Below, piece after piece: positions 1-25,586 of a stretch of 64,000 bases of DNA. The notes below the pieces were generated by a model, which worked only from the letters and a program-made list of their open reading frames with translations, was not told where the DNA came from and did not search any database. Numbering within the stretch: position 1 is the first letter of the stretch; every line of letters begins with the position of its first letter. A program made the position numbers and the translations under genes. The stretch is from an uncultured bacterium (GTDB taxonomy: Bacteria > Patescibacteriota > Minisyncoccia > Phycocordibacterales > UBA918): positions 4,881 to 68,880 of the forward strand of contig CBFGXL010000002.1 of assembly GCA_965652925.1 (NCBI GenBank), written 5' to 3'.

Positions 1-782
1 GGGTCCTGAGGATTCTGCCAAGTCAAAACAACGTCGTTCTCTGTCACTGATGCTTGCAGTCCAAAAACATTCGATGGCGGGATTGTGTCTGGAGCAGACA
101 GAGTTTTGAACGTACCGGAAGAAAGCACATGTCGTTTCCCCTGTCTGTCATACCCGAGAAGCTGATACTCATACACTGTTGCTGGCTCAAGATCAGTGAT
201 GACGGTCTTGTGCTCGCGTTTGAATGGTCCATTTGCAACAAAACCAAGTTCGTAGGAAGTGGTCCTCCCCCAGTGGAGTTCAAACTGAGCATACAGACTC
301 GTCTCCCATGAGACCTCTGCGCTGTATATCTCGGGGACAATATTAAAATCAACAAGATACAAATGAGTTCCACCCCCATCTGAAGATGGGGGTGGCGCAG
401 AAACGCCGGGCGTTGTAGTAGCAACAGCGGTTGAAGAAGATGAGTAATTATAAGATGAGTCGAACGCTGCTACAAAATAGGAATACGTGGTGCTTGCAAT
501 AAGCCCTGTGTCAGAATATGAGGTCAGAGAAGTTGTCGCGATCTGAACTGAATCACGGAATACTTGATACCCCCCAAGAGCCACGTCGTCAGTTGATGCA
601 TTCCATGAAAGATCTATCTGTGAAGAAGCCACAGGCGTTGCAGATAATCCTGTTGGCGTACTTGGAGCATTGATGTCCCCAATAACTTGCTGACCAACAC
701 GGAACTCATCGGTCTGCGCCTGTACAGGACCAGCGATGGTGAGAAAAAATGCAGCAGCAAAAACGAGAGCTTTCATTTTCAT
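1..782 (-). CDS. Partial CDS (5' end inside window, 3' end beyond position 1) for a secreted protein with a signal peptide and at least 2-3 fibronectin type III-like repeats.
   Basis: Reverse-strand translation from the ATG at 782 reads MKMKALVFAAAFFLTIAGPVQAQ... followed by LSATPVASSQIDLSWNASTDDVALGGYQVFRD...TTYSYFVAAFD, a classic FN3 pattern. There is no stop before the window edge, which explains why it is absent from the ORF track. Its start overlaps the upstream gene's stop by 4 bp (ATGA). Confidence 0.6.
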   Translation of the reverse strand, partial: MKMKALVFAAAFFLTIAGPVQAQTDEFRVGQQVIGDINAPSTPTGLSATPVASSQIDLSWNASTDDVALGGYQVFRDSVQIATTSLTSYSDTGLIASTTYSYFVAAFDSSYNYSSSSTAVATTTPGVSAPPPSSDGGGTHLYLVDFNIVPEIYSAEVSWETSLYAQFELHWGRTTSYELGFVANGPFKREHKTVITDLEPATVYEYQLLGYDRQGKRHVLSSGTFKTLSAPDTIPPSNVFGLQASVTENDVVLTWQNPQD

Positions 783-1540
783 AATGAGAGAGCGGTCAGT
801 GTTGTGGTCGCCACATACAGCCCAGGGGCCTGAATGACTGAGCCGCCTACCTCTACGCGGAAGCGAACAGTTGTGGTTGCTCCGGTTGGATGATTGGCAC
901 CAGTATTCGAAGCGATGATCACCGGTGACGTAGAAAGCCCGTCCCAGCATGCAAGTTCTGTGTCTTGCGAACCAGTGTTACACGCTCCTCCGTTATCTCT
1001 AAACCGTGATGTAATATCTATGCCTTCAGGTGTATAACCGAAGTGTGCATCGGCAGACCCAGAGGTGAATGTAAAATCTGGGTCTCCTGCAGGTGTGTAG
1101 TCTGCAATACTATCTGCTCCTTTTTGCATGGCAGGACTGTCTGAAGCAGCTATGGACAAAGAATACCCAGACGGACTGTCCGTTGTTACATTTACCGTAG
1201 CTGAACCATTGGAAGTTCCTCCAGAAATGCCGGGGATAGAGGGTGAAAGGCCTATATCAGATGATGCGCTTATAGCAATATAGACTTCCTGCATCTGCTG
1301 ATAACCGGCTTTGAGACTATAATTTGTGCTCGTGGATACACCGCTTGCTAATTCTCCTGCAGTAGATTCAAGTACATAGTTCGACGATGTTGAGAGACCG
1401 CCTCCGAAGTTGATGCTGTCACTCTGGATCTGATAGTTACTGCTTTGCATCACTTGCGCAATAGAAATGGACAAACTGCTGAATAACAGAACTGTTCCTA
1501 TGCCGGCGTACAGGGCTGATAAAAGAATACCCTTCCCCAT
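779..1540 (-). CDS. Secreted Ser/Thr/Gly-rich protein, paralog of 2620..3312, with a divergent WxL-like C-terminal domain.
   Basis: It has an N-terminal signal/TM segment (MGKGILLSALYAGIGTVLLFSSLSISIAQ). It shares collinear motifs with 2620..3312, including SPSIPGISGGTSNGS, DYTPAGDPDFTFTS, a C-x5-C-W pair, and the C-terminal YVATTTLTALSL, which resembles the WxL-domain end motif (tAtLTWTL). Confidence 0.55.
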   Translation of the reverse strand: MGKGILLSALYAGIGTVLLFSSLSISIAQVMQSSNYQIQSDSINFGGGLSTSSNYVLESTAGELASGVSTSTNYSLKAGYQQMQEVYIAISASSDIGLSPSIPGISGGTSNGSATVNVTTDSPSGYSLSIAASDSPAMQKGADSIADYTPAGDPDFTFTSGSADAHFGYTPEGIDITSRFRDNGGACNTGSQDTELACWDGLSTSPVIIASNTGANHPTGATTTVRFRVEVGGSVIQAPGLYVATTTLTALSL

Positions 1541-1545
1541 AGTAC

Positions 1546-2601
1546 TTACTGAGACTTACGTTTAAATTCAAAATTCTTTGCGAAGAAACGGACCAGGAAG
1601 AAGAGGACAAAGAGGACAACAAATACCGGGACAATAACCATCCATGGGAAGACCCAAAATGTTATCGTTTTCGTGTCGATCACATCATCGTACCCTCTAT
1701 TGATATGTGCTGTTGCGGTATATTTGCCGACGAGCAATTCCCTGCTCCATGAGACTTCTCGGGCACGCAGTGACTGAGGCAAAGAAAACCATGGATCAAG
1801 CTCTATAACCCCCACTTCCTCCCCAAGGAGATTGGTGATGCGGATTTCTCCGTATGGGTTAAGGTGTATATCACCCTTATTCTCATAGAGCACCTGGAAG
1901 TTGATTGGCCCTTCTGTAAAAAAAGATCTGTTTGGGATTGTCGCAAAGTCCTGCAGGATTCCTTCTGTTGCGATATCACCCGGCACCGTTACAAAGAAGA
2001 GTGTCCCCACTCTCGAGACAACCGCAGAGGCGGCTGAAGCACCAGACTGGTCCGCCACACCTGCTTCTTTTGAGACCGTAGTCACAAGAAGACTTCCGTA
2101 TCGTCCTCCCGCCTCCGCATCAGCAGGTATCGAGACAGTAACAGGAATACGTGCACGCTCATTATGCTCAAGATCAATGCTTGTATGCGGATATGAGATG
2201 TAGTCTCGGAGTGTATACGGACCACGATCATCCCCAAGAAGTACTACTGGCGTATTGGTGTTATATGAACCTTCAGCATCCTCAACTTCAAAATTGAATT
2301 GGCGCAGCTCACCCGTGCGGTTGGTCACCATGAGCTCTACAGTTTTTGACTGACCAGGTTCGATCACGAGTTCTGCTTTTCCTGGACCGACAACAAAATC
2401 TCCAGGAACAGAATCCGATGGAGAATCGAGAACTTCAGTTGTGTAGCCCAAAGGGGCACTTGAAGTTTGGTTGGCTGTTCCGCTTTCTGCACCTTCTTGA
2501 GAAAAAACGTTTTGGGGCAAAAGCATCACTCCAAGAAAGAGAAAGACTACCGCACAAACACGAGCGGTAGTCCTCTTCAGAAGTGTAGCTGAGTCATTCA
2601 T
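1546..2601 (-). CDS. Cell-surface protein with an N-terminal signal peptide and a C-terminal TM anchor plus a basic tail (DUF916/DUF3324-like architecture).
   Basis: The N-terminus is a hydrophobic signal (AVVFLFLGVMLLPQNVFSQ). The C-terminus is VFPWMVIVPVFVVLFVLFFLVRFFAKNFEFKRKSQ. It sits between two WxL-like genes, matching the arrangement of Gram-positive csc/WxL loci. Confidence 0.55.
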   Translation of the reverse strand: MNDSATLLKRTTARVCAVVFLFLGVMLLPQNVFSQEGAESGTANQTSSAPLGYTTEVLDSPSDSVPGDFVVGPGKAELVIEPGQSKTVELMVTNRTGELRQFNFEVEDAEGSYNTNTPVVLLGDDRGPYTLRDYISYPHTSIDLEHNERARIPVTVSIPADAEAGGRYGSLLVTTVSKEAGVADQSGASAASAVVSRVGTLFFVTVPGDIATEGILQDFATIPNRSFFTEGPINFQVLYENKGDIHLNPYGEIRITNLLGEEVGVIELDPWFSLPQSLRAREVSWSRELLVGKYTATAHINRGYDDVIDTKTITFWVFPWMVIVPVFVVLFVLFFLVRFFAKNFEFKRKSQ

Positions 2602-2619
2602 TATTTGAATGATTTTAAG

Positions 2620-3312
2620 CTAGTTGGTGGTAGCGGTCAACGTAGCAGTTGCAGTGTACGTGCCTGTCTGTATAGCTGGGCTTGGATTACTTGGTATGTT
2701 GACGCGGAACTGGATAGTGGTCGTTGCCCCCGATGCGGCGGTCGAAGTTGTCCTGTTTATGATAGTTTCTGCTGCATCATCAGGGTCCATCCAACACGTT
2801 CCAGAACCATCCGTTGCACCTGTCGCACAGGTATTTGACCCGTTATCAAGAAACGACGCATCGAGGTCAGCCGATGAGGAGGCAGTTACGGTGTATCCAA
2901 ACTGTGCGAATGTATCGCTGGTGAAGGTATAGTCTGGCGTACCATCAGCTGCTGGTGCGTAGTTGCTTATATAACCACCACCGCCATCGCGGATCATTGC
3001 AGTTGTGCTTGAGAAGGCAATGGTCATGTTATAGCCCGCCGCATTGTTGGTACGGACCCGTACAGCATACGAACCATTTGAAGTACCTCCTGTGATACCT
3101 GCAAGTGAAGGACTCATCGTCACATCACTTGAAGTTGCCACAAATGAGATCTCCTCAGTGACTGTCTGAGTGACTTCAAACTCATCAGTGTCAACCGCCG
3201 CTCTTCCCACAACCGGTTCGAGCATGAGAAATGATCCTGCTGCAAGCAACAGCATGAGCGTTGTTGCAGTGAGCGAACTCAGCAGCGAAGTCCTAATATT
3301 TGTAATGGTCAT
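2620..3312 (-). CDS. Secreted Thr/Ser-rich protein, paralog of 779..1540, with a WxL-like C-terminal domain (W positions substituted).
   Basis: It has a signal peptide (LLSSLTATTLMLLLAAGSFLMLEP), a collinear alignment to 779..1540, and the C-terminal YTATATLTATTN. Confidence 0.55.
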   Translation of the reverse strand: MTITNIRTSLLSSLTATTLMLLLAAGSFLMLEPVVGRAAVDTDEFEVTQTVTEEISFVATSSDVTMSPSLAGITGGTSNGSYAVRVRTNNAAGYNMTIAFSSTTAMIRDGGGGYISNYAPAADGTPDYTFTSDTFAQFGYTVTASSSADLDASFLDNGSNTCATGATDGSGTCWMDPDDAAETIINRTTSTAASGATTTIQFRVNIPSNPSPAIQTGTYTATATLTATTN

Positions 3313-3426: not shown

Positions 3427-6400
3427 CTAAATCTCTCCTCCTCCACCCCCGCCGCCGCCTCCTGCCTGGGTGTAGGGCCGCACTTGGATGGCATCAACCC
3501 GGACAGTGTTCTGATCGGGTTGTCCGATAACCCGCACTACGAAGTTTGCATCACCCAGTTCAGCAGGCGTCCATCCTCTTCCCCATGTGTCGGACGGTCC
3601 GCCGAGCGTGTAGACCGCGTCAGATCCCGTTAAGACTGAGGTTGCTTTGGTTGCAGTAACAGAACTGTCTCCATTCCATGAAAGCGCAACCTGGATAGTA
3701 CCCGCGCCAGTAGAACCAGATGCCTCGAGTTTTACTTCTATACCCTGTACGGTATTGCCGCCCGGCACATTGAATCCAAAGAGGCTATAGGATTGGCGCA
3801 GGTTTGTAGATGCTGCTGTTGCATAGACTCCGTCGGAAGAAAGAGCATTGCTTCCTCCTGTCCACTCGCTATAGAGCTCTCCAGTTGCGCTTGGAGCCTC
3901 AAAGCCTGGTTCGTTGCCAATCTCTTCCCCATTGTCTTCCTCTCCTACCCCGCCGCCGCCTTGGCTTCCGCCGCCGCCGACGTCTCCATCGCCTTCGGGC
4001 GCCTCACCTCCCACTTCGGCCGCATGCAAAGCTCCGCTTCCATTGTTTCCTCCGCGGATATGCTGCACGCTTGAGACAGACCCGAGTGGAACGATGGCCC
4101 CAGCGGTAGTAGCTCCGGTGCCAGACAAACCGGTAGTTGGCAAACTGATAGTTACATATTCATTAGTGAGTACTCCCGACACGTCGCTTGTAAGGATGTA
4201 GTCTTTGGTTGTGGTTGCACTCCATGATGTTGAGAATGTGACCGTTCCTGATTGTTCTGTAACCGAGATCTCTCCTGCCCCACCAATCTGGTTGTCCCCT
4301 GCATCTACAGACCCGTCGCTGTTGTTGTCGCGATACAGCCTCAAGTCTGAAAGGTTGCTGCTGTCTATGCGGCGGATGCCGGAGAGCGCGAACGCCGCCG
4401 ATGAGATAGTCGCATTCTCTCCTTCAGGTGCAAGCCTGAAAGTATAGAGCGGCACATCGCTCTGGTTCTGATAGCTGAATTCATTTTCCACCTGTCCCGC
4501 TGTATGTTCAGAAAGCGTTGCTGCGCCGTGAATGGCAATTGTTTTATCGTCGGTTGCGGTTATCTGCGCGACAGAACTACCTGGCGCAGTCATGACGCGG
4601 TTGGTGCCGCTATTGGCAACTGCTACGAGTGTTCCTGTTTCATAAAGATCACTTGCGTATGTGATCGAAGACCACTGATTTGCTTCAGCGGCTGTACGCA
4701 CAGTCCAGTTATTACCATCGGGTGAGGTCATAACATAGTCACTACCGCTTCCCACAGCAACAAAGAGATCGGATGCGTATACTACTGAGGCCCATGAGTC
4801 ATTATCACCAGCCGCCGAACGTGCGGTCCAGTTAATACCATCGGGGGAGGTCATGACGCGATCGCTACCGCTTCCCACAGCGACAAAGAGACCGTTGCCG
4901 TAAGTGACGCTCGTCCACCAGTCATTATCACCAGCAGCAGAACGTGGGGTCCACGTTGTACCGTCAGGAGAAGTAATAACACGGGTGTTTCCACTACCGA
5001 CTGCGACAAAGAGACCGTTGCCGTAAGTGACCGACTGCCAGTTACCTGAGACGGCTTGTGCGCTCCAAGTGATGCCATCATCTGAGCTCATGACCGACGC
5101 ATTAGTTCCACAACCATTATCGTATCCGCCGCAGCCAACTGCCACGAATTTGCCTGAACCATAAGTAACCTCTGACCATATTTGATCAGTGGCAACTGAA
5201 CGTGCAGTCCACGTGATGCCATCCGGAGAGGTCATGATCGGATCATCGCTACCTCCTGTACTCACCGCCACAAAGATACCTTCTCCATACGTTATGGAGG
5301 ACCAGGAATCATTATCACCAGCAGCCGAACGTGCGGTCCAGTTAGAACCGTCAGAGCTTGTCATGACGCGGTTGGTTCCGTTTTCGGCAACAGCAACGAG
5401 TAGTTCACTTTCGTAAGCGACTGAACTCCACGAGTTTGCTTGTGCAGCGGAGTGGGCAGTCCAGGCAGAACCTCCATCTTCTCCAGCACTCTCTGTAATT
5501 AGGACAAGTGTACTCGTTGCGGTGTTGACCGTTCCAAACTGCACGAATGAAAGTCCTGAGATAGTGAGAGTATCACTCCCAACGAAATCGTTAGAGACCG
5601 GAACAACAAGCGTCGCCCCACCATTCTCATACGAGACCGGATTTGCAACCTTGCCTGAAGCAGTGCCTCCGAAGGTAGCAGTGGTATCTGTAGTGTCCCA
5701 CAACATATCGGTTGCAGAAGTATCGATCTTAATGCGGAGGTCATTTGCTGCAGTAATTGCTGGGGTCTCCCCGTCCGTGATGGTTATGGTCGCTATTGTT
5801 GTAGTAGCTTGACCGTACCCAAAGACCTGGTTTGAAGCTGAGGAGATGGTTCCCGGCACGGGCTCACCCCCAGTAATATCCCAGCAGGTGTTATTGCCGC
5901 TGTCGGTAGAATCAGTTGCGGTTATGTTCGGGTTCCCTGAGCAGGCGTTTGAATCCTGTACGTCAACATAGGTCACCGAGATCGGGGTGGTGACATCAAG
6001 TCCCCACTGTGTCCCTTCTTTTGATGAGCGGAGTATCGCCTCACCCCCTTCTTCCCCATCAATTCTCAGAGAAGCAAAGGTTGAAGTAGCATATGCTGGA
6101 AACTCAAACGTCACCCCAGGGGTCTGTGAAATAAATTTTGATGCTTCCACGGGAGTTGAGAACCGGATGGTCCCATCCACACGAGATCCGCTGTTCGAAA
6201 TCATGACCCTGTTGCTCCCTGCTTCGATGTCGCCGACCGCCACAAACGTGCCATTGCCATAGGTGACCGAGAACCAATCATTAGCCTCCGCAGCGGCCCG
6301 CGCAGTCCACGTGATGCCGTCAGGCGAGGTCATGACGCGATTGGTGCCTGTGTCCGCAACCGCAACAAACAGACCATCGCCATAAGTAATCGCGAACCAG

Positions 6401-9400
6401 CCGCTTGCCTCCGCAGCTGCGCGGGCGGTCCACGTGATGCCGTCGGGTGAGGTCATGACGCGATTGGTGCCTGTGTGTGCTACCGCCACAAACGTGCTAT
6501 TACCATAGGCGACCGAGAACCAATCATTAGCCTCCGCAGCTGCGCGGGCGGTCCACGTGATGCCGTCGGGTGAGGTCATGACGCGATTGGTGCCGTCAGA
6601 GGCGACCGCTACAAACAGACCTTCACCATACGTGACTGATACCCACGAGTTAGCTTCCGCGGCAGAACGGGCGGTCCACGTGATGCCGTCGGGTGAAGTC
6701 ATGACACGGTTGGTCCCGTCAAAGGCGACCGCTACAAACAGACCTTCACCATACGTGACTGATATCCACGAGTTAGCTTCCGCGGCAGAACGGGCGGTCC
6801 ACGTGATGCCGTCGGGTGAGGTCATGACGCGATTGGTGCCATCTTGAGAAACGGCAACAAAGGTTCCATTGCCATAGGTAACACCGAGCCACGTCTGATT
6901 ATTGCCTGGAGTACTTCGTGCGGTCCACGTGATGCCGTCGGGTGAGGTGATGATTTGGTCATCTCCATCATACGCAACTGCAACAAAGAGACCTTCCCCG
7001 TAGGTGACTGAATACCAGCCTTGTGTTGACACGTTACTGCTTGTCCATGTTGTTCCTCCTTCAGCATTTGATCCGGAGGAAACCTTGACCACAAGATTGT
7101 TAAATGCCGAATCAGAGCTTAAAGCGCCGGTGAGCGTCTGGTCATTACCTGTAAGAGTAGTTGTCCCTGTTCCCCAGTCAATTGTTCCGTCATTGGTGTA
7201 ATCCCCTGCAATCGACATCAGCGCCGGCGCGTCGACCGTGGTCGATGCAGTGATGGTGAGGTCGCTTGTTGAAGCGTTGTTCTCAAAGACAACACCTCCT
7301 GCAAGACTGCCGCTGTTGGAGGTCATGACACGGTTGGTGCCAGTATCGGATACAGCTACAAGCATTCCATTCCCATATACCACCTCCATCCATCGATTTG
7401 CTTCTGTAGCAGGCGTACCTGTCCACGTGATGCCGTCGGGTGAGGTCATGACTCGGTTCCCTCCTGCTGTAGTGTTGCAGCTAGCGTTGCCGATTCCGCA
7501 TGCAACCGCGACAAACGTATGGCCCGTATGAGTGACCGACTCCCAGTTGTCGGCAGGCGCCGTTCGCTCGGTCCAGGTGATGCCATCGGGTGAGGTCATC
7601 GCAAGCGCAGTTCCATTTCCTACTGCAACAAAGAGTCCTTCGGCGTAGACAATACCGTGCCAAGACGACTGCGTCACAAGGGGCGTCCTTGTGGTCCACG
7701 TGATGCCATCGGGTGAGGTCATGATCGTACCATCCCATGATAAAGCCACAAAGAGGCTGTTGCCGTAGGTGACTACACTCCACTGGCTTGCCTGGGCTGC
7801 AGTTCTATTGGTCCACGTGATGCCGTCAGGAGAGGTCATGACGCGGTTGGTGCCGTCAACTGAAACGGCTACGAACATATCATTTCCAAATGCTACGCTA
7901 TACCACGAGTTAGCCTGTGAGGCGGTTCGTGCGGTCCAGGTGATTCCATCAGGCGAGGTCATCACGCGGTTGGTACCGCTTTCTGCTACTGCAACAAAGA
8001 TGCCATTGCCATATGTGACGGAGTTCCACCCAGCGGACTCGTCCGCAGACGTCCGAGCGGTCCATGTGATGCCGTCGGGAGAGGTCATTACATTATTTGT
8101 GCCTCCATTAGATACCGCAACAAAGAGTCCCTCGCCGTAGACAAGACCCTGCCACGAATTATTGGTAGCTGCACTGCGCGCGGTCCACGTGATGCCGTCC
8201 AGAGCAAGAGTCTGCGGACTATCAAGCGTCAGATCGTTGAACGCCGAAGTGCCGGTCATGTTGCCAGAGAGCGTGGTGGTACCTGTGTATACCGTTGATT
8301 CATCGTAATCAAGAGAATACGGAAACACTGTGTCTGCAGCCGCACCATATATGTATACTTTCGAGCCATCCGCATTGAACTCGATGCTGCATACGGAACT
8401 CTCCTGTGCAGATACCGATTCACCTGCTCCGTCGTATGTTGCAGTAGTTATGTCCCATGGCGTTCCGAGCGTGTACGGGAAAATGGTGTTTGAACCTGTT
8501 CCCACAACATACATCTTGGTACCATCGTCCTTAAGATGCACATCCTGCACAGCACTTTCCTGTCCGCTTATCAGGAAGGACTTGCTGTCATAGGTCGCGC
8601 TGCTGATGACCCATGGAGTTCCGAGCGTATATGAGTATATGCGATTGTTGCTGTCCCCGGATATATACATGCGAGTTCCATCCTCTGTAATGTGCATTCC
8701 GAATGGACTGACATCCTGAGCAATAGAGAAGGACGAGCTGTCATAGCTGGCTGTGGTGACATCCCATGGAGTTCCGAGCGTATAGGAGAATACAGCGTCA
8801 TTCTCTGAACCGAGCATGTACATCTTGGTGCCATCGGTCTTGAATGACACCTTCTCAACCCACTGGTCTTGAGCCAGGATACTGAAGGATTTGTTGTCAT
8901 ACACAGCTGTTGTGACGTCCCACGGGGTTGAAAGAGTGTACGAATACACCGTATCCATGTTGTACCCCGCTACGAACATCCGAGTGCCATCGGGACTGAA
9001 AGCAAGGCTTGTGATGTTATTCTCTTCGCTTGCAGTGGACTTCCCTGCGCCATCGTATACAGCAGTGGTGACGTCCCAGCCGCCGGTTACGGTGGTTGAA
9101 GCAGTAGTGGTTCCATTGATATACACAATGCCTGAGCCGCTGTTGAACGTGCCGCTGTTAGTGTAATCCCCCGTTATGGTCAAGGCGCTTGGGGCAGCCA
9201 CTGTAGAGCCCGAAGCGATCGAAAGATCGCTTGTGCTTGCATTGTCGCTGAAGGTCTTGGTGCTGTTGCCGGAGAAATAGACATCATTGAAAGCGCTCGT
9301 GCTTGCCATGTTCCCCTGGAGTGTTTGGGCCGTTGAGCCGGTGAAGTACACCGCTCCGCCGTTGTGTGTGAAGGTACCGTCGTTGGTATAGTCATCGGCA

Positions 9401-12400
9401 ATCGACAGCAGAGCAGGAGCAACAACCGTGGTCGAAGCGCTTCCGATAGTGAGATCGGTTGTTGAAGCATTGTCAGCAAAAGTGACCATGTTCTCGTACG
9501 AACCATCGCTTGAGACCAGAACCTGGTTTGTTCCGTCGGTACTTACGCCTACAAACTTACCTTCTCCATAGGTCAGGGACCTGAAGAAGTTCGTGTTTGG
9601 CGCGGTCTGTTCGGTCCAGGTGATGCCATCTTCTGAGGTCATGATATAGGTGCTTCCGGTTAATATATCGCCCAAAGATGCAAAGATACCTCCTCCATAG
9701 GCAAGTCCGTACCAGTCACTATTGCCAGGTGTAGTCCTTGCAGTCCACGTGATGCCGTCAGGCGAGGTCATCGCAGTATCGGTCTCACTGACCGCGACGA
9801 ATATACCTTCCCCGTAGACCACCCTCTGCCAGCCGGATGCGCTTGATGCACTACGAGAGGTCCAGGTGATGCCGTCTTGTGAGGTCATGACGCGGTTGGT
9901 TCCCGTATCGGAAACTGCAACATAGGTTCCATTACCGTACGTTATACCCATCCAATCATTTGCCTCTGCAGCTGTTCTGCCGGTCCACGTGATGCCGTCA
10001 GGCGAGGTCATAACGCGGCTGGTGCCGCTATACGCCACCGCAACGAATTGACCATTGCCGTAGGTGATTTCTCTCCATGTAGAGCTTTCGTCACCGGAGG
10101 TTCGCGCAGTCCACGTGATGCCGTCGGGCGAGGTCATGACGCGGCTGGTACCGGTGTTCGCAACAGCCACGAAGAGGCCGCCGCCGTACGTAACCGCTTG
10201 CCACGAATTTCCTACAGCTGGGGTGCGGCTGGTCCAGGTGATACCGACGGGTGAAGACATGACGTCTCCATCCCAGGAGACTGCGACGAAGGTCCCATTG
10301 CCATACGCAACGCCGCTCCACTGCGAGGACGCTGACGCACTTTCCTCTTCCCAGACAGCTGCTGTGTTAGCTAATTCTCCCGTTGAAGTGGCAGTAAGGT
10401 TCCCAAGCGCAGAGTTTCCGGTGAGATTACCCGAAAGGCTGCTGTTCCCTTCGATTACCATTGTGCCATCGTTGTGGTCGAACTCGCCGTTGTTCGTATA
10501 GTTGCCTTCAACCGTGATCGTCCCCGAAGGCGCAGTGACCGTCGCTGTTGCACCAATGGTCAAATCCCCCATCGCAACATCATTCGTGAAAGAAACCGTG
10601 CTGTCATCGGCGGTAATAGTGAAGTCGGCAAAAGTTGTCTCTCCGCTTCCGGTAAAATCCTTATCCGTGTCTGGAGTGCCGCCTCCTTCTGTGCCGGTGG
10701 TGAACTGGAAAACGTCCTGCTCATCAAAGCCGTACATGTACATTTTCACTCCATCGTTCCCAAAGGCAACCTGCATCGGGGAGAATTCAGTGAATGATTC
10801 TGCGCCGAAATCGAATGTCTCACCGCTGACAAGGACCGCTGTAGAGATATCCCACGCAGTGCTGAGCGCATATTCATACATGGCGGACGTAGAGTGGCCT
10901 ACCATGTACATATACATTCCGTCACTGGTGAAATGAATGCCTGTGGGGGTAGTATCCTGCGATGCAACAGAGAATGTCTGGGAAAAGACACCAGTAGAGA
11001 CATCCCATGCGACACTGAGGTTATATTGATGGACCGCATCACTGTTGCCTCCCACCACATACATCTTGGTTCCGTCAGAACTGAATTCCACTCCGTATGG
11101 GTTCGTTTCTTTTCCGCTTACGTCCAAGTAGTCAGTATATGAGGCTGAAGAGACATCCCACGGTGTGGACACAGCATATTCACCCACAGCCGCAGCGCCA
11201 TCTGCAGTTATGTAGAACTTCGTACCGGTATCATTGAAATAGAGGTCTCCAGCAAAGTCTTCCTGCGCCGCCACGCTAAAGGTATTGACCTGCGAAGCTG
11301 TTGAGAGGTCCCAGGCGCTACTGAGCGTGAACTCGCGAACGATGTCTGTTGACCAGCCGAAGGTGTACATCTTCAGTCCGTCTGAACGGAAATGGAGTCC
11401 TGCAGGTCCTGTGTCGGCAATACTTTCCAAGACACTGTCATAAGTTGCTCCGGCCACATCATAACCGACGGTATTGTTCTCAAGATCAATGGTCGTTGCT
11501 CCTGAGGCCTGCGTGAAAGTGCCGTTGTTAGTAAAGTCAGAATTGAGTGTAAGCGCGTCTGGAGCAGCCACTGTTGAGCTCGCAGTGATCGTGAATGCTC
11601 CATTCACTACTGCATCAGCAGTGAAGGTCTGTGTGGTATCTGCATAGGACCCGCTCTCTGAGGTCATGACGCGGTTAGTGCCTCCGTACGAAACTGCTAC
11701 AAAAGTATCTTTTCCGAAGGTAACAGAATTCCAGAATGTAGACTCAGCTGCGCTTCGTGCAGTCCAGGTGATGCCGTCGGGCGAGGTCATCACGCGATTG
11801 GTACCGCTCTCCGCAACGGCAACAAAGAGGCCATTGCCGTAGGTAACTGAAGTCCACGCATTTGCTTCAGCTGCTGTGCGCGCGGTCCAGGTGATGCCAT
11901 CAGGGGAGGTCATCACTTGATCCGTACCGCTTGTTGCAACAACCACAAATGTTCCCTCTCCGTGGGTAATTGAATACCACTGATGATCCCCCGCATCTGT
12001 TCGCGCGGTCCAGGTGATGCCGTCAGGACTTGTCATGACACGGTTCGTTCCATTATTTGAAACGGCTACGAAAAGGTCTTCAGCATATATAACTGAAGTC
12101 CAAGCGTTCGCTTCTGCAGCGCTTCGCGCGGTCCAGGTGATGCCGTCAGGACTTGTCATGACACGGTCAGTTCCACTTCCCACAGCAACAAAGAGGCCAT
12201 TGCCGTAAGTGACGCTGTACCACGTATCATCATTGCCTGCAGCCGAACGAGGAGTCCAATTGACCCCGTCAGACGAGGTCATAACACGATTCGTTCCCGT
12301 TTGAGCAACGGCTACGAAAAGACCATTGCCGTAAGTGACGCTGTACCAGTTATTTGCTTCAGCCTCAGCTCGAGCTGTCCACGTGATGCCGTCAGACGAG

Positions 12401-14928
12401 GTCATAACGCGGTTGGTTCCTGTTTCAGCAACAGCCACAAAGAGACCGTTGCCGTAGGTAACAGACAGCCAATTGTTTGCCGCAGATGCAGATCGCCCAG
12501 TCCATGTCACGCCATTATTTTCAAAATTGCTCACCGAGACTAAGAAACTTCCATCTGCTACCCCAGCTCTATTGACCCCATCAGAGTTGATCGCAACCAC
12601 CTTGCCGTCTCCATAGGTTATGTCTTCCCACTGCGCACTTTCTGCTTCATCGACAGGAGTCCAATTGATGCCATCAGTGGAGATCATGACCTGCTCAGCA
12701 AGATCGCCGTACCCGATCGCCACGAAATACTCGCCTGTAAAAGTAACTCCTATCCAGGACCCGTCATAGGTCGCGTCCCGCGCAGTCCAGGTTATGGCGT
12801 CAGGAGATGTCATGACATTCATGGTCCCGGCATTAAGGGATGAGACAGCTACATAGGTGCCGTTGCCATACGCGATACCATTCCACCAATTGTTTTCAGC
12901 TGCAGTGCGGTTCGTCCACGTGATACCGTCTGGAGAGGTTGCTACGCGGTTATCTCCCACAGCAACAAACTGGCTGTGTTCTTCGTTGAACATAACATTG
13001 TAAATGCCGTTGCCTGATGCGGTACCGGAAGACCACGTAAGACCATCGTCTGAATACATTGCGGTACCGTCGTACGAGAGCGCAACAAACCTCCCTTCGC
13101 CATACGCAACAGCAGACCACATATCTGCAGAAGCAGCAGTTCGGTTCGTCCACGTAATGCCGTCCTCTGAGGTCATGACGCGGTTAGTGCCATTAGGTGC
13201 CACAGCGACGAATCGGCCTTCGCCATACGCGACCTTTCTCCATTCGTTCGCCTGTGAAGCAGAGCGTCCTGTCCAGGTGATGCCGTCAGGAGAGGTCATG
13301 ACGCGAGAACCTCCCGCCGTTGCGTTACATGCGCCATCAACAGAGATGCCGCAGGCAACCGCCACAAAGAGACCTTCACCGTAGGTGACTCCTTGCCATG
13401 GGTGAGCAAGGCTCGGCGTGGAAGCGGGGATCCAGTGCGTTCCGGTGACCAGCACTCTTTGTGTCGAAGAACCAGTTACTATAGGACCATAGGAAATTTC
13501 GTTTCCGCTTATAGTCGCATCCACCGGAAACGAGGTTGTACCCGCAGTCAGGTCAAGCGTACCGTTATTTTCTAGGTCTCCTCCAAGTACTGTTGAAGTG
13601 GCACCAGTGAAAGTATCCCCGCTCCATATATAGAGCTTCTGCCCATCGTCGATTAAGAGCTCTCCATCTCCTTCCCTGACGACATAGGAAATATCCTGAT
13701 CATGCCTTCCGTCATAGGTTCCCATTTCATCAAGCGACGTAGCTCCATCATCCTCATTCCGGATGATGACGTGGTCTTGATAAAGATCCATACCACTGAG
13801 TGCCCCAGAGCCGGCAGTCAAAACAAGAGCACCCCTCGTGCTTTGGTCACCGTCCACCCAAACAACCGCAGTTTCGCCCTCAGCTGGAGCAGCAGAAATG
13901 CTCCAGTCACCGTTACTGTCGGTGGTTGCGGTGGATACTGTGCCGTCAACGTAAGCCTTTATAGTCTTGCCTGTGGTGATCGCTGTAGAGCCCTCATCAG
14001 CATATAGAGTCCCTGACAACGAGGGAGCAACTTCAAACTCTCCAGTGGAGATTGCTACCCAATCATAATTTCGCGATGCGCAGTTCGCATCCGCATCGTC
14101 CTCAAATTGAAGTGACACTCCAGTTGTTGTCTTTGTTCCAACCTCAGGAGAACACAGAGCAGCATTCACCCCTTGAGCCATGGCCACTACGATATAGCTC
14201 GTATCTGGGAATGCTGTTGAGAATGTGACCGAACCGACACCGCTGCCATTTGTAGTTGCACTGCCTGCTTTTATATTTGCCCCGTCAACCGTGTACTCCC
14301 CATGAGAAAATGCACAGTAATTGGTATCTGTCACCGCCTCTGTAGCTCCACCATCATCCTCGATGCGTATCACCGCCTGAGATGTGGTCTTGGAACCTGA
14401 ATTGAAGTTTACAACTGGAGAATCGGTGTCGGTGATAGCATTCGCAATAATTGAATAATTTGTATCCGGGAAAGCACTTGAGAATGTAACAGTGTTGTCG
14501 CCCGCGGTACCTCCGCTCACAGCACACTTCACATACTTGCTACTGCCGAGATTCCAATCTCCATATGTAAGTGCCATCCAGTTATTGCTATTGGCATTCT
14601 CTGCCGAACCCGTGTCATCTTCAGCAACAATGGTGAAGCCTCCGGCTGCTTTGTTGCTGTACGTCATGGAGTACATAACATCAGTTCCGGTCGACCCTCC
14701 ATTGAGAAGGATTGAGTAACTACTGTTGGCCATCGCTGAGCTAAAAGTGACGCCGACAGTACCTCCACTGGTGATATTTATAGCTCCTGTTTTGAATTCA
14801 AAAGATTGTGCATGTGCATGCCCAACAACGCCGAAGAAAAAGAGAGCGGCCAAAACACACCCCATCATTAACATATATATATATGAGGTGATTGATCTTG
14901 TATGAAGTTGTAAAGTGATTTTTTTCAT
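3427..14928 (-). CDS. Giant (3833 aa) secreted surface protein with three N-terminal H-type-lectin-like domains, more than 40 BNR/Asp-box-like 41-aa repeats in five blocks, two blocks of PD40/TolB-like ~55-aa repeats, beta-helix-like Thr/Asn-rich linkers, and a Gly-rich C-terminus.
   Basis: It is a single 11.5-kb ORF with an N-terminal signal (MLMMGCVLAALFFFGVVGHAHAQ). The repeated unit is NRVMTSPDGITWTARSAAEANSW.SVTYGNGLFVAVA, matching S-x-D-G-x-T-W. A second repeat class is FSSDGTKMYVVG..D.V..Y.L.TPWDVSTA. The N-terminus carries three ~90-aa VTFSSAFPDT.YSII...IRIEDD units. Confidence 0.85.
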   Translation of the reverse strand: MKKITLQLHTRSITSYIYMLMMGCVLAALFFFGVVGHAHAQSFEFKTGAINITSGGTVGVTFSSAMANSSYSILLNGGSTGTDVMYSMTYSNKAAGGFTIVAEDDTGSAENANSNNWMALTYGDWNLGSSKYVKCAVSGGTAGDNTVTFSSAFPDTNYSIIANAITDTDSPVVNFNSGSKTTSQAVIRIEDDGGATEAVTDTNYCAFSHGEYTVDGANIKAGSATTNGSGVGSVTFSTAFPDTSYIVVAMAQGVNAALCSPEVGTKTTTGVSLQFEDDADANCASRNYDWVAISTGEFEVAPSLSGTLYADEGSTAITTGKTIKAYVDGTVSTATTDSNGDWSISAAPAEGETAVVWVDGDQSTRGALVLTAGSGALSGMDLYQDHVIIRNEDDGATSLDEMGTYDGRHDQDISYVVREGDGELLIDDGQKLYIWSGDTFTGATSTVLGGDLENNGTLDLTAGTTSFPVDATISGNEISYGPIVTGSSTQRVLVTGTHWIPASTPSLAHPWQGVTYGEGLFVAVACGISVDGACNATAGGSRVMTSPDGITWTGRSASQANEWRKVAYGEGRFVAVAPNGTNRVMTSEDGITWTNRTAASADMWSAVAYGEGRFVALSYDGTAMYSDDGLTWSSGTASGNGIYNVMFNEEHSQFVAVGDNRVATSPDGITWTNRTAAENNWWNGIAYGNGTYVAVSSLNAGTMNVMTSPDAITWTARDATYDGSWIGVTFTGEYFVAIGYGDLAEQVMISTDGINWTPVDEAESAQWEDITYGDGKVVAINSDGVNRAGVADGSFLVSVSNFENNGVTWTGRSASAANNWLSVTYGNGLFVAVAETGTNRVMTSSDGITWTARAEAEANNWYSVTYGNGLFVAVAQTGTNRVMTSSDGVNWTPRSAAGNDDTWYSVTYGNGLFVAVGSGTDRVMTSPDGITWTARSAAEANAWTSVIYAEDLFVAVSNNGTNRVMTSPDGITWTARTDAGDHQWYSITHGEGTFVVVATSGTDQVMTSPDGITWTARTAAEANAWTSVTYGNGLFVAVAESGTNRVMTSPDGITWTARSAAESTFWNSVTFGKDTFVAVSYGGTNRVMTSESGSYADTTQTFTADAVVNGAFTITASSTVAAPDALTLNSDFTNNGTFTQASGATTIDLENNTVGYDVAGATYDSVLESIADTGPAGLHFRSDGLKMYTFGWSTDIVREFTLSSAWDLSTASQVNTFSVAAQEDFAGDLYFNDTGTKFYITADGAAAVGEYAVSTPWDVSSASYTDYLDVSGKETNPYGVEFSSDGTKMYVVGGNSDAVHQYNLSVAWDVSTGVFSQTFSVASQDTTPTGIHFTSDGMYMYMVGHSTSAMYEYALSTAWDISTAVLVSGETFDFGAESFTEFSPMQVAFGNDGVKMYMYGFDEQDVFQFTTGTEGGGTPDTDKDFTGSGETTFADFTITADDSTVSFTNDVAMGDLTIGATATVTAPSGTITVEGNYTNNGEFDHNDGTMVIEGNSSLSGNLTGNSALGNLTATSTGELANTAAVWEEESASASSQWSGVAYGNGTFVAVSWDGDVMSSPVGITWTSRTPAVGNSWQAVTYGGGLFVAVANTGTSRVMTSPDGITWTARTSGDESSTWREITYGNGQFVAVAYSGTSRVMTSPDGITWTGRTAAEANDWMGITYGNGTYVAVSDTGTNRVMTSQDGITWTSRSASSASGWQRVVYGEGIFVAVSETDTAMTSPDGITWTARTTPGNSDWYGLAYGGGIFASLGDILTGSTYIMTSEDGITWTEQTAPNTNFFRSLTYGEGKFVGVSTDGTNQVLVSSDGSYENMVTFADNASTTDLTIGSASTTVVAPALLSIADDYTNDGTFTHNGGAVYFTGSTAQTLQGNMASTSAFNDVYFSGNSTKTFSDNASTSDLSIASGSTVAAPSALTITGDYTNSGTFNSGSGIVYINGTTTASTTVTGGWDVTTAVYDGAGKSTASEENNITSLAFSPDGTRMFVAGYNMDTVYSYTLSTPWDVTTAVYDNKSFSILAQDQWVEKVSFKTDGTKMYMLGSENDAVFSYTLGTPWDVTTASYDSSSFSIAQDVSPFGMHITEDGTRMYISGDSNNRIYSYTLGTPWVISSATYDSKSFLISGQESAVQDVHLKDDGTKMYVVGTGSNTIFPYTLGTPWDITTATYDGAGESVSAQESSVCSIEFNADGSKVYIYGAAADTVFPYSLDYDESTVYTGTTTLSGNMTGTSAFNDLTLDSPQTLALDGITWTARSAATNNSWQGLVYGEGLFVAVSNGGTNNVMTSPDGITWTARTSADESAGWNSVTYGNGIFVAVAESGTNRVMTSPDGITWTARTASQANSWYSVAFGNDMFVAVSVDGTNRVMTSPDGITWTNRTAAQASQWSVVTYGNSLFVALSWDGTIMTSPDGITWTTRTPLVTQSSWHGIVYAEGLFVAVGNGTALAMTSPDGITWTERTAPADNWESVTHTGHTFVAVACGIGNASCNTTAGGNRVMTSPDGITWTGTPATEANRWMEVVYGNGMLVAVSDTGTNRVMTSNSGSLAGGVVFENNASTSDLTITASTTVDAPALMSIAGDYTNDGTIDWGTGTTTLTGNDQTLTGALSSDSAFNNLVVKVSSGSNAEGGTTWTSSNVSTQGWYSVTYGEGLFVAVAYDGDDQIITSPDGITWTARSTPGNNQTWLGVTYGNGTFVAVSQDGTNRVMTSPDGITWTARSAAEANSWISVTYGEGLFVAVAFDGTNRVMTSPDGITWTARSAAEANSWVSVTYGEGLFVAVASDGTNRVMTSPDGITWTARAAAEANDWFSVAYGNSTFVAVAHTGTNRVMTSPDGITWTARAAAEASGWFAITYGDGLFVAVADTGTNRVMTSPDGITWTARAAAEANDWFSVTYGNGTFVAVGDIEAGSNRVMISNSGSRVDGTIRFSTPVEASKFISQTPGVTFEFPAYATSTFASLRIDGEEGGEAILRSSKEGTQWGLDVTTPISVTYVDVQDSNACSGNPNITATDSTDSGNNTCWDITGGEPVPGTISSASNQVFGYGQATTTIATITITDGETPAITAANDLRIKIDTSATDMLWDTTDTTATFGGTASGKVANPVSYENGGATLVVPVSNDFVGSDTLTISGLSFVQFGTVNTATSTLVLITESAGEDGGSAWTAHSAAQANSWSSVAYESELLVAVAENGTNRVMTSSDGSNWTARSAAGDNDSWSSITYGEGIFVAVSTGGSDDPIMTSPDGITWTARSVATDQIWSEVTYGSGKFVAVGCGGYDNGCGTNASVMSSDDGITWSAQAVSGNWQSVTYGNGLFVAVGSGNTRVITSPDGTTWTPRSAAGDNDWWTSVTYGNGLFVAVGSGSDRVMTSPDGINWTARSAAGDNDSWASVVYASDLFVAVGSGSDYVMTSPDGNNWTVRTAAEANQWSSITYASDLYETGTLVAVANSGTNRVMTAPGSSVAQITATDDKTIAIHGAATLSEHTAGQVENEFSYQNQSDVPLYTFRLAPEGENATISSAAFALSGIRRIDSSNLSDLRLYRDNNSDGSVDAGDNQIGGAGEISVTEQSGTVTFSTSWSATTTKDYILTSDVSGVLTNEYVTISLPTTGLSGTGATTAGAIVPLGSVSSVQHIRGGNNGSGALHAAEVGGEAPEGDGDVGGGGSQGGGGVGEEDNGEEIGNEPGFEAPSATGELYSEWTGGSNALSSDGVYATAASTNLRQSYSLFGFNVPGGNTVQGIEVKLEASGSTGAGTIQVALSWNGDSSVTATKATSVLTGSDAVYTLGGPSDTWGRGWTPAELGDANFVVRVIGQPDQNTVRVDAIQVRPYTQAGGGGGGGGGEI
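6299..6913. repeat. Five or more tandem copies of a 123-bp (41-codon) unit with very high nucleotide identity inside the 3833-aa gene, encoding BNR/Asp-box repeats.
   Basis: The core cgggcggtccacgtgatgccgtcgggtgaggtcatgacgcgattggtgcc recurs starting at 6299, 6422, 6545, 6668 and 6791, an exact 123-bp period. Confidence 0.85.
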
Positions 14929-23802: not shown

Positions 23803-24511
23803 CCGGTACTAATAAAAAAGTTGTAGACCCAGAACCATTCTTGAATATTGGGCGTATCAGCGGACCACCCTCCTCATCGAAGATGATCTCCACATCATCA
23901 GAAAACTCTGCTGCCACACTTTCAACCAGAGCAGTATCCTCCTGTTCACTCCGCGGTGGAAATTGCGGCAATGTCGTAAAGATCTCGACGTCTTCGCGAA
24001 CCGTGGTGCTTCCCTCAAGCGCTGCAGAGATATGCTTTTCATCTCGAGAGAATTCCAATACGAAACTGGGGAGTGTGGCTTTAGCAACAAGCGCAACGTT
24101 CTCTGATGCGGCAGAGCTCAACTCTGTAAGTCCAACCTGTTCATGTGACACAACCCACCCAAGCATTCCCACAATCCCTCCGCATGTCAGCAATACAGCA
24201 GCCTGAGCCAATGCAAGAAATTCATGGTCCTTTGAAGCACCGCCCACATCTGTTTTTCTCTGATGAGACTCGTGTTCGATCTTGCGTACTCGTCTGAGTT
24301 CCTCCTTTCTGATCTTTTTCTCAATCTCAACTTGTGCGAGATATGTGTTGAGTGATCCGGGTTCGATGAACCACTGTCTGCCCACCTGAGTTCCAAGAAT
24401 TTTTTCCTCCCGGGCAAGCTTGCCGATGTAGTCATGACTGTACCCGCACTGCGAAGCAAGTACGTTGCTTGGAACGTACTCTTTTCCGTTTATGACAAGG
24501 CTCTGCGTCAT
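23783..24511 (-). CDS. Membrane-tethered DNA-binding protein with an N-terminal HTH_17/excisionase-family HTH, one TM helix and a ~115-aa C-terminal extracytoplasmic domain.
   Basis: The N-terminal ~55 aa (INGKEYVPSNVLASQCGYSHDYIGKLAREEKILGTQVGRQWFI) fits the excisionase-type HTH pattern (..G.S..yIgkLaR.G.i....vGrrwrI). The TM segment is LALAQAAVLLTCGGIVGMLGWVV. It is a paralog of 24555..25586. Confidence 0.6.
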   Translation of the reverse strand: MTQSLVINGKEYVPSNVLASQCGYSHDYIGKLAREEKILGTQVGRQWFIEPGSLNTYLAQVEIEKKIRKEELRRVRKIEHESHQRKTDVGGASKDHEFLALAQAAVLLTCGGIVGMLGWVVSHEQVGLTELSSAASENVALVAKATLPSFVLEFSRDEKHISAALEGSTTVREDVEIFTTLPQFPPRSEQEDTALVESVAAEFSDDVEIIFDEEGGPLIRPIFKNGSGSTTFLLVPVENRNE

Positions 24512-24554: not shown

Positions 24555-25586
24555 CTAAAAAATAAAGAAATTTGTGGAGAACTTTAAAAGGTCAAAAAGT
24601 GCATCAAATTCTTCCACCGAAGTATGCACAGATGCAGTCAGATGCTCGATTGCAAACTGATACGAAGTAGTGACCGTCTGCCCTTCCACTAAGTAGTTGC
24701 TCTCGAGTCCAAGCAGACCGACTACAAGCAGAATAGAAAAAGCAAAAGATGCCAGAACAAGCACTTTCGAACCTAACGAAGAATTTCCCTCCTCAGCAAC
24801 AAGAACTTTCGCACCCTCTGAAAGTCCAGCCGGTGTTTGTGCGGATTCATGTCTGACCGGAGTATGCACAGGCAAATCATGAGAATGAATATTTTTTGTT
24901 GTTGCTGTAGTGGCACCGTTTCTGTGTGCGGCATTCTGAGGAATCAATGCAGTTGTTTTTCGCATTCCATGAAATGGTTTTGACGAAATAACTATATTTT
25001 TAGTCTTTTTATGATCTTTTACTTCTTTTGGGTGGATTATCTTCTGACCTTCCATCTCCTGTATCCTCCCCTCATCAACCTCTGAAACGTGCAGTGCCCC
25101 ACGAAAGCGAATCTCGGGCAGCTTTGGGGCATCCATACGATAGCTAGGCACACTCGACGCTATGGGAAGTTGGACAGCGTCAGCCAGCTCAACTTCAAGT
25201 GAGCCATTTCTTTTCCCTTCTTTTTGAACCAGAGGTATCAACTCGGATTCATCCTCTAAATAGGCAACTTTTGAAGTTTTCTGACTGTGGTAAAAATGGG
25301 GTGATGCTACTTGCTTGTTCGTGCTCTCATTAACACGTACTTTCACTTCTTCTCGTAGAGATTCCTTTGCCTTTGTAGTAGTGCTTCTGTAACGACTCGT
25401 CTTATGCATTGAGATGGAATCACGGTCTACATACCAACTTCTCCCCACCAATTTGGCATGCACACGATGGGATCGGCAGAGCTGCCCCACATAATCAGCA
25501 GTGTACCCGAGATCTCGGGCGATAACACTAGCTTTTACATATTCTTTTCCCCCAACGTTAAGAACGTCCATACCAGAATTATACAC
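24555..25586 (-). CDS. Membrane-tethered DNA-binding protein with an N-terminal HTH_17/excisionase-family HTH, a long basic linker and a C-terminal TM helix (paralog of 23783..24511).
   Basis: The N-terminus (VGGKEYVKASVIARDLGYTADYVGQLCRSHRVHAKLVGRSWYV) matches the same HTH signature. The TM segment is VLVLASFAFSILLVVGLLGL near the C-terminus. Confidence 0.6.
   Translation of the reverse strand: MYNSGMDVLNVGGKEYVKASVIARDLGYTADYVGQLCRSHRVHAKLVGRSWYVDRDSISMHKTSRYRSTTTKAKESLREEVKVRVNESTNKQVASPHFYHSQKTSKVAYLEDESELIPLVQKEGKRNGSLEVELADAVQLPIASSVPSYRMDAPKLPEIRFRGALHVSEVDEGRIQEMEGQKIIHPKEVKDHKKTKNIVISSKPFHGMRKTTALIPQNAAHRNGATTATTKNIHSHDLPVHTPVRHESAQTPAGLSEGAKVLVAEEGNSSLGSKVLVLASFAFSILLVVGLLGLESNYLVEGQTVTTSYQFAIEHLTASVHTSVEEFDALFDLLKFSTNFFIF

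Follow-up and report, generated by a model that had tools for sequence, protein, structure and literature searches.

A conserved operon of Patescibacteria with a WxLIP-homologous membrane protein and a possible role in surface fibre assembly

Bacteria of the candidate phyla radiation (CPR), or Patescibacteria, are thought to live attached to host cells, and to our knowledge hardly any of their surface machinery has been described apart from type IV pili. What, then, is to be made of a compact cluster of genes for exported proteins on a contig of an uncultured member of the Patescibacteriota (GCA_965652925.1, contig CBFGXL010000002.1, positions 4,881 to 68,880), of which the whole stretch of 64,000 nucleotides, here called the window, was analysed? 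At 779-3312, on the minus strand, lie genes for a small secreted protein (S1), a protein with a signal sequence and a C-terminal transmembrane (TM) segment (M) and a second small secreted protein (S2), a layout on which open reading frames (ORFs) and hydropathy agree. A preliminary description, made from the sequence alone, had likened this trio to the WxL clusters of Firmicutes, with both name-giving tryptophans replaced, and had suggested that it might dock giant proteins to the cell wall. That interpretation is partly supported: M does belong with the DUF916/WxLIP proteins, while no WxL homology could be detected in S1 and S2. Together with a fourth gene, F, the three form a conserved operon that, with a probability of roughly 55%, assembles a thin fibre on the cell surface through donor-strand exchange aided by a chaperone, as a minimal relative of the Pam pilus with a WxLIP-homologous chaperone.

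A membrane protein homologous to WxLIP

The middle protein, M (1546-2601, minus strand; 351 amino acids), has hydrophobic segments at residues 10-35 and 311-346, close to its N and C termini, as judged by hydropathy. The expectation that it is a DUF916 relative held up. M matches PF06030 (WxLIP_PGBD, the former DUF916) over residues 78-173 at 29.2 bits (E = 1e-6), where the gathering score is 27.3, and the same family is matched by 87 of 92 M relatives, at best with E = 5.1e-10. Compared with Firmicute WxLIPs by hhalign, the M family reached a probability of 96.9% (E = 1.5e-10) over 100 columns confined to the first of its two domains. An M profile also found the sequence of the solved EfmWxLIP1 (E = 5e-7), and M residues 74-175 align with EfmWxLIP1 residues 21-125 in the match to the PDB sequence. 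The outcome was different for DUF3324 (PF11797, WxLIP_HBD), which had been expected alongside DUF916: none of 92 M-type proteins matched at E ≤ 0.01, whereas plasmid-encoded WxLIP controls scored 1e-32 to 1e-40, and the resemblance in this part is one of fold alone.

The AlphaFold2 (AF2) model of M, with a predicted local distance difference test score (pLDDT) of 89.5, comprises two beta-sandwich domains followed by a C-terminal helix. Domain 1 (residues ~66-178; 2068-2406, minus strand) is Ig-like (immunoglobulin-like) and is the part homologous to WxLIP_PGBD. It is followed by a long hairpin (165-178/193-206 by DSSP), the tip of which is modelled with low confidence according to pLDDT. Domain 2 (residues ~193-317; 1651-2025, minus strand) is a second Ig-like beta-sandwich, with DSSP strands spanning 193-317 and pLDDT >94. 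The helix (residues 320-349), which would hold M in the membrane, is encoded with the basic tail FEFKRKSQ at 1555-1644 on the minus strand. In a Foldseek search of the PDB, the top matches of the model were Enterococcus faecium WxLIP structures (9i1y and 9i25_C, E = 1.6e-12 to 8.5e-12), in alignments of 269-274 columns that span both domains. Next came RbmA and then a series of chaperones of chaperone-usher systems, CfaA, CsuC, Caf1M, FimC, CupB2, PapD and EcpB (1e-8 to 1e-6). The PDB entry 9i25 bears the title 'WxLIP bound to long WxL'. By PF06030, AF2 model and Foldseek, M is a true, distant DUF916/WxLIP homologue with a chaperone-like fold.

A side observation concerns the sequence L016 (CP069367.1, 4025-4322), which is labelled as a Klebsiella pneumoniae plasmid. 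It is an unannotated two-piece sequence, 74% identical to a fragment of E. faecium WxLIP1, with a WxL-like ORF beside the split WxLIP1-like piece, and is apparently either Enterococcus-derived DNA or a mis-assigned record.

Two paralogous putative subunits without detectable WxL homology

Both small proteins, S1 (2620-3312, minus strand; 230 amino acids) and S2 (779-1540, minus strand; 253 amino acids), were called as ORFs and carry a single N-terminal hydrophobic segment that looks like a signal peptide by hydropathy. They are paralogues (41% identity over 181 amino acids, E = 3e-32), a relationship overlooked in the preliminary description, as was a 50-residue N-terminal extension present in S2 and missing from S1. 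S1 is a secreted single-domain subunit composed of a signal peptide, a single N-terminal strand motif (DTDEFEVTQTV) and a beta-sandwich core; in S2, the signal peptide is followed by a conserved linker and then by the beta-sandwich core.

The motifs with tyrosine and alanine in place of tryptophan, on which the comparison with WxL proteins had been built, were found in both proteins where they had been reported. GYNMTI occupies residues 93-98 of S1 and GYSLSI residues 125-130 of S2, and the C termini read ...GTYTATATLTATTN in S1, with TLTATTN, and ...GLYVATTTLTALSL in S2, with TLTALSL; the C-terminal strand of S2 is Y242-x-A-T-T-T-L-T-A. In S2 numbering, G125, Y126, Y242, T245, T247, C187, C198 and W199 are invariant in 132 relatives, meaning that the motif residues are family features rather than chance. 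The sole Trp (W199 in S2, W174 in S1) follows the second Cys of a pair (C187/C198 in S2, Cys162/Cys173 in S1), in a context that is not that of WxL.

Does this make S1 and S2 WxL proteins? Genuine small WxL proteins end ...GYTTTLTWNLG..., and at the level of motifs the likeness is real. Yet the WxL motif positions in S1 and S2 read G-Y-x-[LM] and T-L-T-A, the dual Trp-x-Leu motif is missing, and the two motifs lie 124-133 residues apart, as opposed to ~104-107 in the plasmid-encoded small WxL proteins that have both. A spacing of ~106 residues has been described for small WxL proteins (PMC9772566).

Profile comparisons pointed the same way. S1 and S2 gave zero matches to PF13731 (WxL) at E ≤ 10, and 0 of 132 S-family relatives matched it at E ≤ 1, whereas the positive controls—genuine WxL proteins from Firmicute loci that were taken from plasmids and confirmed by Pfam—scored E = 1e-26 to 1e-41. 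A WxL hidden Markov model (HMM) built from 12 plasmid-borne WxL proteins and run with --max reached E = 0.5 at best against the S family. With hhalign, the S family and 12 small WxL proteins aligned at a probability of 3.8% and only over the last hairpin (cross-controls, 0.4-0.9%); for trimmed cores, the local score was 15.5 versus 11.3 ± 2.1 after column shuffling and was reached by 4 of 100 shuffles. The global mode returned an end-overlap alignment, which is meaningless and was disregarded. Likewise, the WxL chains of 9i25 were absent from the top 50 Foldseek PDB matches of S2. Direct WxL membership of S1 and S2 was rejected on this sequence evidence (Pfam, our own HMM and local hhalign), and their likeness to WxL proteins, real as it is in the motifs, appears to fall short of detectable homology. 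Profile similarity was therefore present for one of the two families invoked at the outset, DUF916, and absent for the other.

A conserved linker and a relation to the pilin PamT

A different relation emerged for S2. The Pam pilus has recently been described in CPR bacteria, in Candidatus Mycosynbacter amalyticus (Troman et al. 2026 preprint, 10.64898/2026.03.03.709456). The components proposed for it include PamC and PamD as chaperones anchored in the membrane, a tip pilin, PamT, and an RbmA-like anchor of FnIII (fibronectin type III) domains, PamR, which has an N-terminal strand and a TM helix; the pilins PamA and PamB consist of a beta-sandwich N-terminal domain (NTD), a donor linker and a truncated Ig-like C-terminal domain (CTD) (10.64898/2026.03.03.709456). 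S2 matches the NCBIfam model CPR_pilus_PamT (NF058579) over residues 15-145 with E = 4.6e-12 and 45.9 bits, a match that is significant but below the cut-off, which makes S2 a distant homologue and not an equivalog. All 61 S2-type members match the model (best E = 5e-13), each of them below the cut-off, and none of the S1-type members does. The match takes in the signal peptide and repeat linker of S2 and reaches into the first strands of its core; in P0380, where a domain is inserted after the linker, the match is limited to residues 10-93. No match to the PamA/B model was obtained for S1 or S2, both of which are single-domain proteins.

Within the linker of S2 (residues 29-81; 1298-1456, minus strand), the repeat S-S/T-N-Y-x-[LI]-x-[SA] occurs three times, at residues 33, 52 and 71, with Gly-rich spacers in between. 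In the AF2 model, the Ig-like beta-sandwich core (residues 82-253; 782-1297, minus strand), which also holds the invariant columns, has pLDDT >90, whereas the linker is disordered with pLDDT <50. Across 80 species, this disordered segment is nonetheless more conserved than the core (0.75 versus 0.66) and includes 13 invariant residues, as would be expected of a segment that folds upon binding. The Foldseek PDB list for S2 consists mostly of subunits of donor-strand-exchange fibres: TLP-1a is at the top, and the list includes TLP-1a/b, the PapG pilin domain, PapE, CS20, FimA, CfaB, CsuA/B, TasA and archaeal cannulae.

Many relatives are longer than S2 and place an unrelated N-terminal region of 100-1,950 amino acids before the linker and the S core, reaching up to 2,187 amino acids in total. 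A C-terminal module of linker and S core is found, for example, in P0363, P0374, P0379, P0435 (2,187 amino acids) and P0467 (1,205 amino acids), and in P0380, P0414 and P0396 a domain of ~200-340 amino acids is inserted between linker and core. About 15 representatives (P0364, P0369, P0371, P0372 and others) appear as M-S2 fusions. These retain the signal peptide of S2 itself and are probably not natural fusions, the gene calls having run on across the short gap.

A conserved four-gene operon

The trio is not complete by itself. The stop codon of S2 overlaps the start of a fourth gene, F (ATGA), which is translationally coupled to S2, had been overlooked and leaves the window at its left edge, so that the interval 779-3312 covers the system incompletely. 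The first 260 of its 561 amino acids are encoded at 1-782 on the minus strand; the complete sequence was taken from the metagenome contig L002 (11820-13505), which is 100% identical to the window across the aligned 1,600 bases. F comprises a signal peptide, FnIII repeats (fn3, PF00041, 41.4 bits; matches of the FnIII part to PDB sequences with E = 2e-13) and three C-terminal TM segments, which hydropathy places at 461-491, 493-523 and 535-561, outside the window. Near its N terminus it carries the strand motif TDEFRVGQQV.

Relatives of the three cassette proteins abound. A protein collection clustered at 90% identity holds 1,609 for S2, 1,207 for M and 506 for S1, and those with names belong mostly to Candidatus Kaiserbacteria, Pacebacteria and Patescibacteria. 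A full-library search with the S2 profile returned representatives of 1,511 clusters at 50% identity, with E ≤ 1e-10 for 667, and the best 150 matches of the S2 representative search are all close S2 relatives (E < 1e-52). Within the GTDB species collection, an S2 relative is encoded in 178 genomes, among which 80 loci were fetched for counting synteny, nearly all labelled as CPR lineages. The complete order S1-M-S2-F is found in 65 of these 80 loci, most of the others ending at contig ends, and F comes after S2 in 78. The genes are separated by median gaps of 17 (S1-M), 3 (M-S2) and -1 (S2-F) nucleotides, and S1-M-S2-F is a conserved operon of real genes.

Some record titles are at odds with this distribution. 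The locus L042 is labelled 'Acidimicrobiales bacterium', and L017, L020, L021 and others are labelled 'uncultured Candidatus Saccharibacteria'. In genomes bearing such labels, the S2 orthologues are 55-77% identical to S2 of the window, and their closest relatives are labelled Kaiserbacteria or Paceibacteria; given this conflict, the titles are unfit for inferring taxonomic range. Scans for promoters and terminators gave counts close to those of shuffled sequence and therefore carry no weight.

A model for fibre assembly

How might the four proteins act together? All of them would be exported by Sec, with M then held in the membrane by its C-terminal helix. The Ig-like domains of M would hold fresh S subunits and lend a beta-strand to a groove in their Ig-like fold, which is assumed to be incomplete. 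The linker of S2, unfolded in isolation, would supply the donor strand or strands through its three strand-forming repeats: one repeat would take the place of the strand lent by M in the subunit before it, so that a head-to-tail polymer arises. S1, with its single N-terminal strand motif, would be the tip or an adaptor subunit. F, which has a strand motif as well as FnIII domains and three TM helices, would close off the fibre at its base and fasten it to the membrane, as an anchor or terminator like PamR.

Precedents exist for the central steps. WxLIP has been predicted by AF2 to insert a strand into a gap in WxL (PMC10599100), which is donor-strand complementation in all but name. In the TLP-1 fibril from pond water, the N terminus is disordered in AF2 and serves as donor strand within the filament (PMC11494351). 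For the donor linker of PamA/B, the supplement of the Pam preprint documents the pattern seen in the linker of S2, with conservation above that of the core (10.64898/2026.03.03.709456).

Several points weigh against the fibre model. PamT is described as a tip pilin without a linker (10.64898/2026.03.03.709456), which is awkward for an S2 that polymerises. The PamT score of S2, 45.9 bits, is far under the cut-off of 240 and covers the N-terminal half only, and the operon has neither a two-domain pilin of the PamA/B type nor an ATP-synthase neighbourhood. The fold matches of S2 are weak, the best reaching E = 3.4e-3 with TM-scores of 0.25-0.54 over the list. The distribution of the strand motif, on the other hand, speaks for the model: [DENST][FYW]x[VIL]x[QTSRKE] occurs after the signal peptide in 76 of 80 S2, 43 of 66 S1, 30 of 77 F and 0 of 74 M proteins, the counts for S1 and F being approximate since signal-peptide boundaries and ORF starts were called crudely. 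The version in S1 and F reads T-D-[DE]-F-x-V-[RT]-[QT]-x-[VI], and in S1 it may be the first strand of the protein's own fold.

Giant neighbours and alternative explanations

Immediately upstream of S1 in the window lies a giant gene (3427-14928, minus strand) for a protein of 3,833 amino acids, which has a conserved C-terminal domain and a poly-Gly-x-Ile tail and ends ...VDAIQVRPYTQAGGGGGGGGGEI. The domain, ~130 amino acids long and ending ...VDAIQVRVYHQ-A-GGGG[GS]GGGG-x-I, is shared with giants at other loci; it closes with a beta-strand, which is followed by 8-10 glycines and a final pair of residues, of which the second is Ile or Leu. Beyond the window, where they are represented at 3427-3560 on the minus strand, such giants occur in L026, L040, L047, L053, L056, L058, L061-L063, L068, L069, L071, L074, L084 and L087. 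The domain with its tail looks like a sorting or attachment signal; searches of Pfam and NCBIfam gave zero matches to it.

The suggestion that the cassette anchors or displays these giants would have S1 or M recognise the conserved C-terminal domain or the poly-Gly tail of the giant, which would then sit atop a short, F-tethered S2 stalk. It is an extension of the fibre model rather than a replacement, and we regard it as quite unlikely. Its appeal lies in the neighbourhood: 27 of 49 testable loci have a giant ORF that ends <600 nucleotides upstream of S1, the gene for a poly-Gly-tailed giant ends 94-576 nucleotides before S1 in 15 of the 17 loci that have one, no convincing terminator separates the giant gene of the window from S1, and the S2 relatives of 1,205 and 2,187 amino acids themselves bear linker and S core at their C termini. 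Neighbourhood by itself is no proof of interaction, however. A search of the window's two giants for modules resembling S or the linker found none, comparison of the giants' C-terminal domain with the S, M and F profiles gave a probability of <1%, and the adjacent giant is absent from 22 of the 49 testable loci and from upstream of the cassette in one complete genome (CP064968.1). With giants that lack an S-like domain and cassettes that lack an adjacent giant, docking is a reasonable extension only; the giant is a frequent, non-obligatory neighbour and a candidate member of the system.

Two further explanations do without polymerisation. Were the locus a true, divergent WxL cluster, S1 and S2 would have lost their Trp residues and would bind the wall non-covalently as a non-polymeric display platform, stabilised by a strand from M. 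M is after all a WxLIP homologue, one WxLIP with two small secreted beta-sandwich proteins is the commonest type of WxL cluster (PMC10599100), G-Y-x-L-x-I and Y-x-AT-TLTA resemble G-W-x-L-x-V and Y-TT-LTW, and the C-terminal hairpin is just what hhalign aligns. This explanation is nevertheless unlikely, because Ig-like subunits often have T-rich amphipathic strands at the C terminus, which makes the motif match weak evidence, and the searches for WxL homology were negative: PF13731 found none of the 132 relatives but did find its controls, the hhalign probability lies near the cross-controls with a local score that shuffled columns can reach, and the WxL chains of 9i25 stayed outside the leading fold matches. 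S2 is significantly related to PamT instead, and neither the conserved repeat linker nor the F gene has a counterpart in WxL clusters. Very improbable, finally, is an account in which the proteins form no assembly at all, S1 and S2 being monomeric adhesins or carbohydrate binders and M and F independent Ig and FnIII surface proteins. Ig-like and FnIII folds are indeed generic surface modules, the fold matches of S2 are weak, and the interaction has so far been deduced only; but such an account leaves unexplained the strict order of overlapping or near-overlapping genes in 65 of 80 loci, the high conservation of a disordered linker and the strand motif common to S1, S2 and F and missing from M. 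It also sits poorly with the homology of M to a protein crystallised with its partner (9i25), which favours a complex.

The remaining surroundings can be described briefly. Neighbours of the operon include gap, rpiB/rpe and transketolase genes of glycolysis and the pentose phosphate pathway. The window also encodes a second giant, of 2,956 amino acids (C terminus at 14932-15402, minus strand), with an acidic, Pro/Glu-rich low-complexity tail ending ...EEPQVETAEEQSIEVTP; a Pro/Glu-rich tail is also present on giant ORFs upstream of the cassette in L020, L028, L032 and L059. Just upstream of the 2,956-amino-acid giant gene, two ORFs have sizes like those of S and M (23783-24511, minus strand, 242 amino acids; 24555-25586, minus strand, 343 amino acids). 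As a candidate second cassette they were rejected, being without HMM similarity to S or M and without a Pfam match.

Significance

The operon is of interest on several counts. It is very widespread, occurring in no fewer than 178 species genomes and represented by 1,511 protein clusters at 50% identity, and is found outside the two classes for which Pam, the only non-type-IV pilus described in CPR bacteria, has been reported. With four genes, it is small enough for reconstitution. The DUF916/WxLIP proteins of Enterococcus, Listeria and Lactobacillus are at present regarded as peptidoglycan- and host-binding. Through the homology of M, they are for the first time linked at the sequence level with a putative chaperone role in building fibres, which, if confirmed, would change the view of WxL virulence loci. 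The recurrent giant neighbours, in turn, suggest a route for presenting the largest adhesins.

A more far-reaching idea, which we put forward as doubtful, is that WxL clusters and Pam-type pili are two branches of one ancient monoderm donor-strand-exchange system. S1-M-S2-F would then be a minimal intermediate that combines a chaperone of the WxLIP type and single-domain subunits of the PamT type with an FnIII anchor, and the 'cell-wall-binding' modules of WxL proteins would be pilin-like subunits. In many genomes, such a fibre would also bear the adjacent giant BNR-propeller protein as an adhesin for contact with the host, attached through its conserved C-terminal domain and its poly-Gly tail.

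Comparison with known systems

Among fibres that are built without an elaborate chaperone apparatus, TasA/TapA of Bacillus subtilis, TLP-1a/b and the archaeal cannulae and threads have secreted subunits of similar size, in which an N-terminal segment that is disordered alone completes the Ig-like domain of a neighbour. Their similarity to S2 is weak (16% identity, TM about 0.3), and they possess neither a membrane chaperone of the WxLIP type nor an FnIII anchor.

The chaperone-usher pili of Gram-negative bacteria (Fim, Pap, Csu, CFA/I and Caf1) resemble the operon in the fold of their components. M superposes on their periplasmic chaperones (E = 1e-8 to 1e-6), the S2 core resembles pilin domains that were solved with chaperones or donor strands (2wmp_B, 1n12, 6fqa_D), and the N-terminal extension of S2 fits the logic of donor strands. 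Here, however, the chaperone M is anchored in the membrane, no usher-like gene was found in the operon or its flanks, and no sequence similarity of the operon proteins to chaperone-usher systems was detected. CPR bacteria have no outer membrane (10.64898/2026.03.03.709456).

The WxL clusters of Bacilli consist of a small and a large WxL protein together with a WxLIP with the order DUF916-DUF3324-TM (PMC9772566, PMC10599100). With these, the operon shares the homology of M to the PGBD/DUF916 domain of WxLIP as well as the whole architecture and fold of that protein, flanked here too by two small secreted beta-sandwich proteins; WxLIP, moreover, has been both predicted and crystallised bound to WxL, with a predicted inserted strand. 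On the other hand, S1 and S2 have no detectable WxL domain and neither Trp-x-Leu motif, large WxL and LPxTG proteins are missing, and DUF3324 is not recognisable in the sequence of M, the model of which shows a second Ig-like domain in this place. The extra FnIII-TM gene and the repeat linker set the operon apart as well, as does its occurrence in another phylum.

The Pam pilus shares many traits with the operon. Both are CPR systems whose components are all exported by Sec (predicted here). M is laid out like the Pam chaperones, with a signal peptide, a pair of Ig-like domains and, at the C terminus, a TM helix, and F like the proposed anchor PamR, with FnIII domains, an N-terminal strand and a C-terminal TM part, M and F having been compared with their Pam counterparts by architecture only. 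The Pam pilins have an acceptor domain of Ig-like fold and a donor linker that is highly conserved, to which the core and linker of S2 would correspond, S2-type proteins match the PamT model (E about 1e-12), and S2 relatives share the NTD-linker-CTD layout of PamA/B/E. The preprint makes no mention of WxL or DUF916 (10.64898/2026.03.03.709456).

The differences from Pam are those of a smaller system in another lineage: Kaiserbacteria/Paceibacteria-type bacteria as opposed to the Saccharimonadia and Microgenomatia of the preprint, four genes rather than about seven, and one chaperone rather than two. Both putative pilins are single-domain and without the NTD of PamA/B, the S2 linker is a triple S-x-N-Y-x-L repeat, F, at 561 amino acids with three TM helices, is twice the size of PamR (32.8 kDa), the neighbouring genes are those of glycolysis and the pentose phosphate pathway instead of ATP synthase, and the PamT score of S2 is far under the equivalog cut-off. 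Taken together, S1-M-S2-F is nearest in its logic to the Pam pilus and, at the level of the chaperone, homologous to WxLIP.

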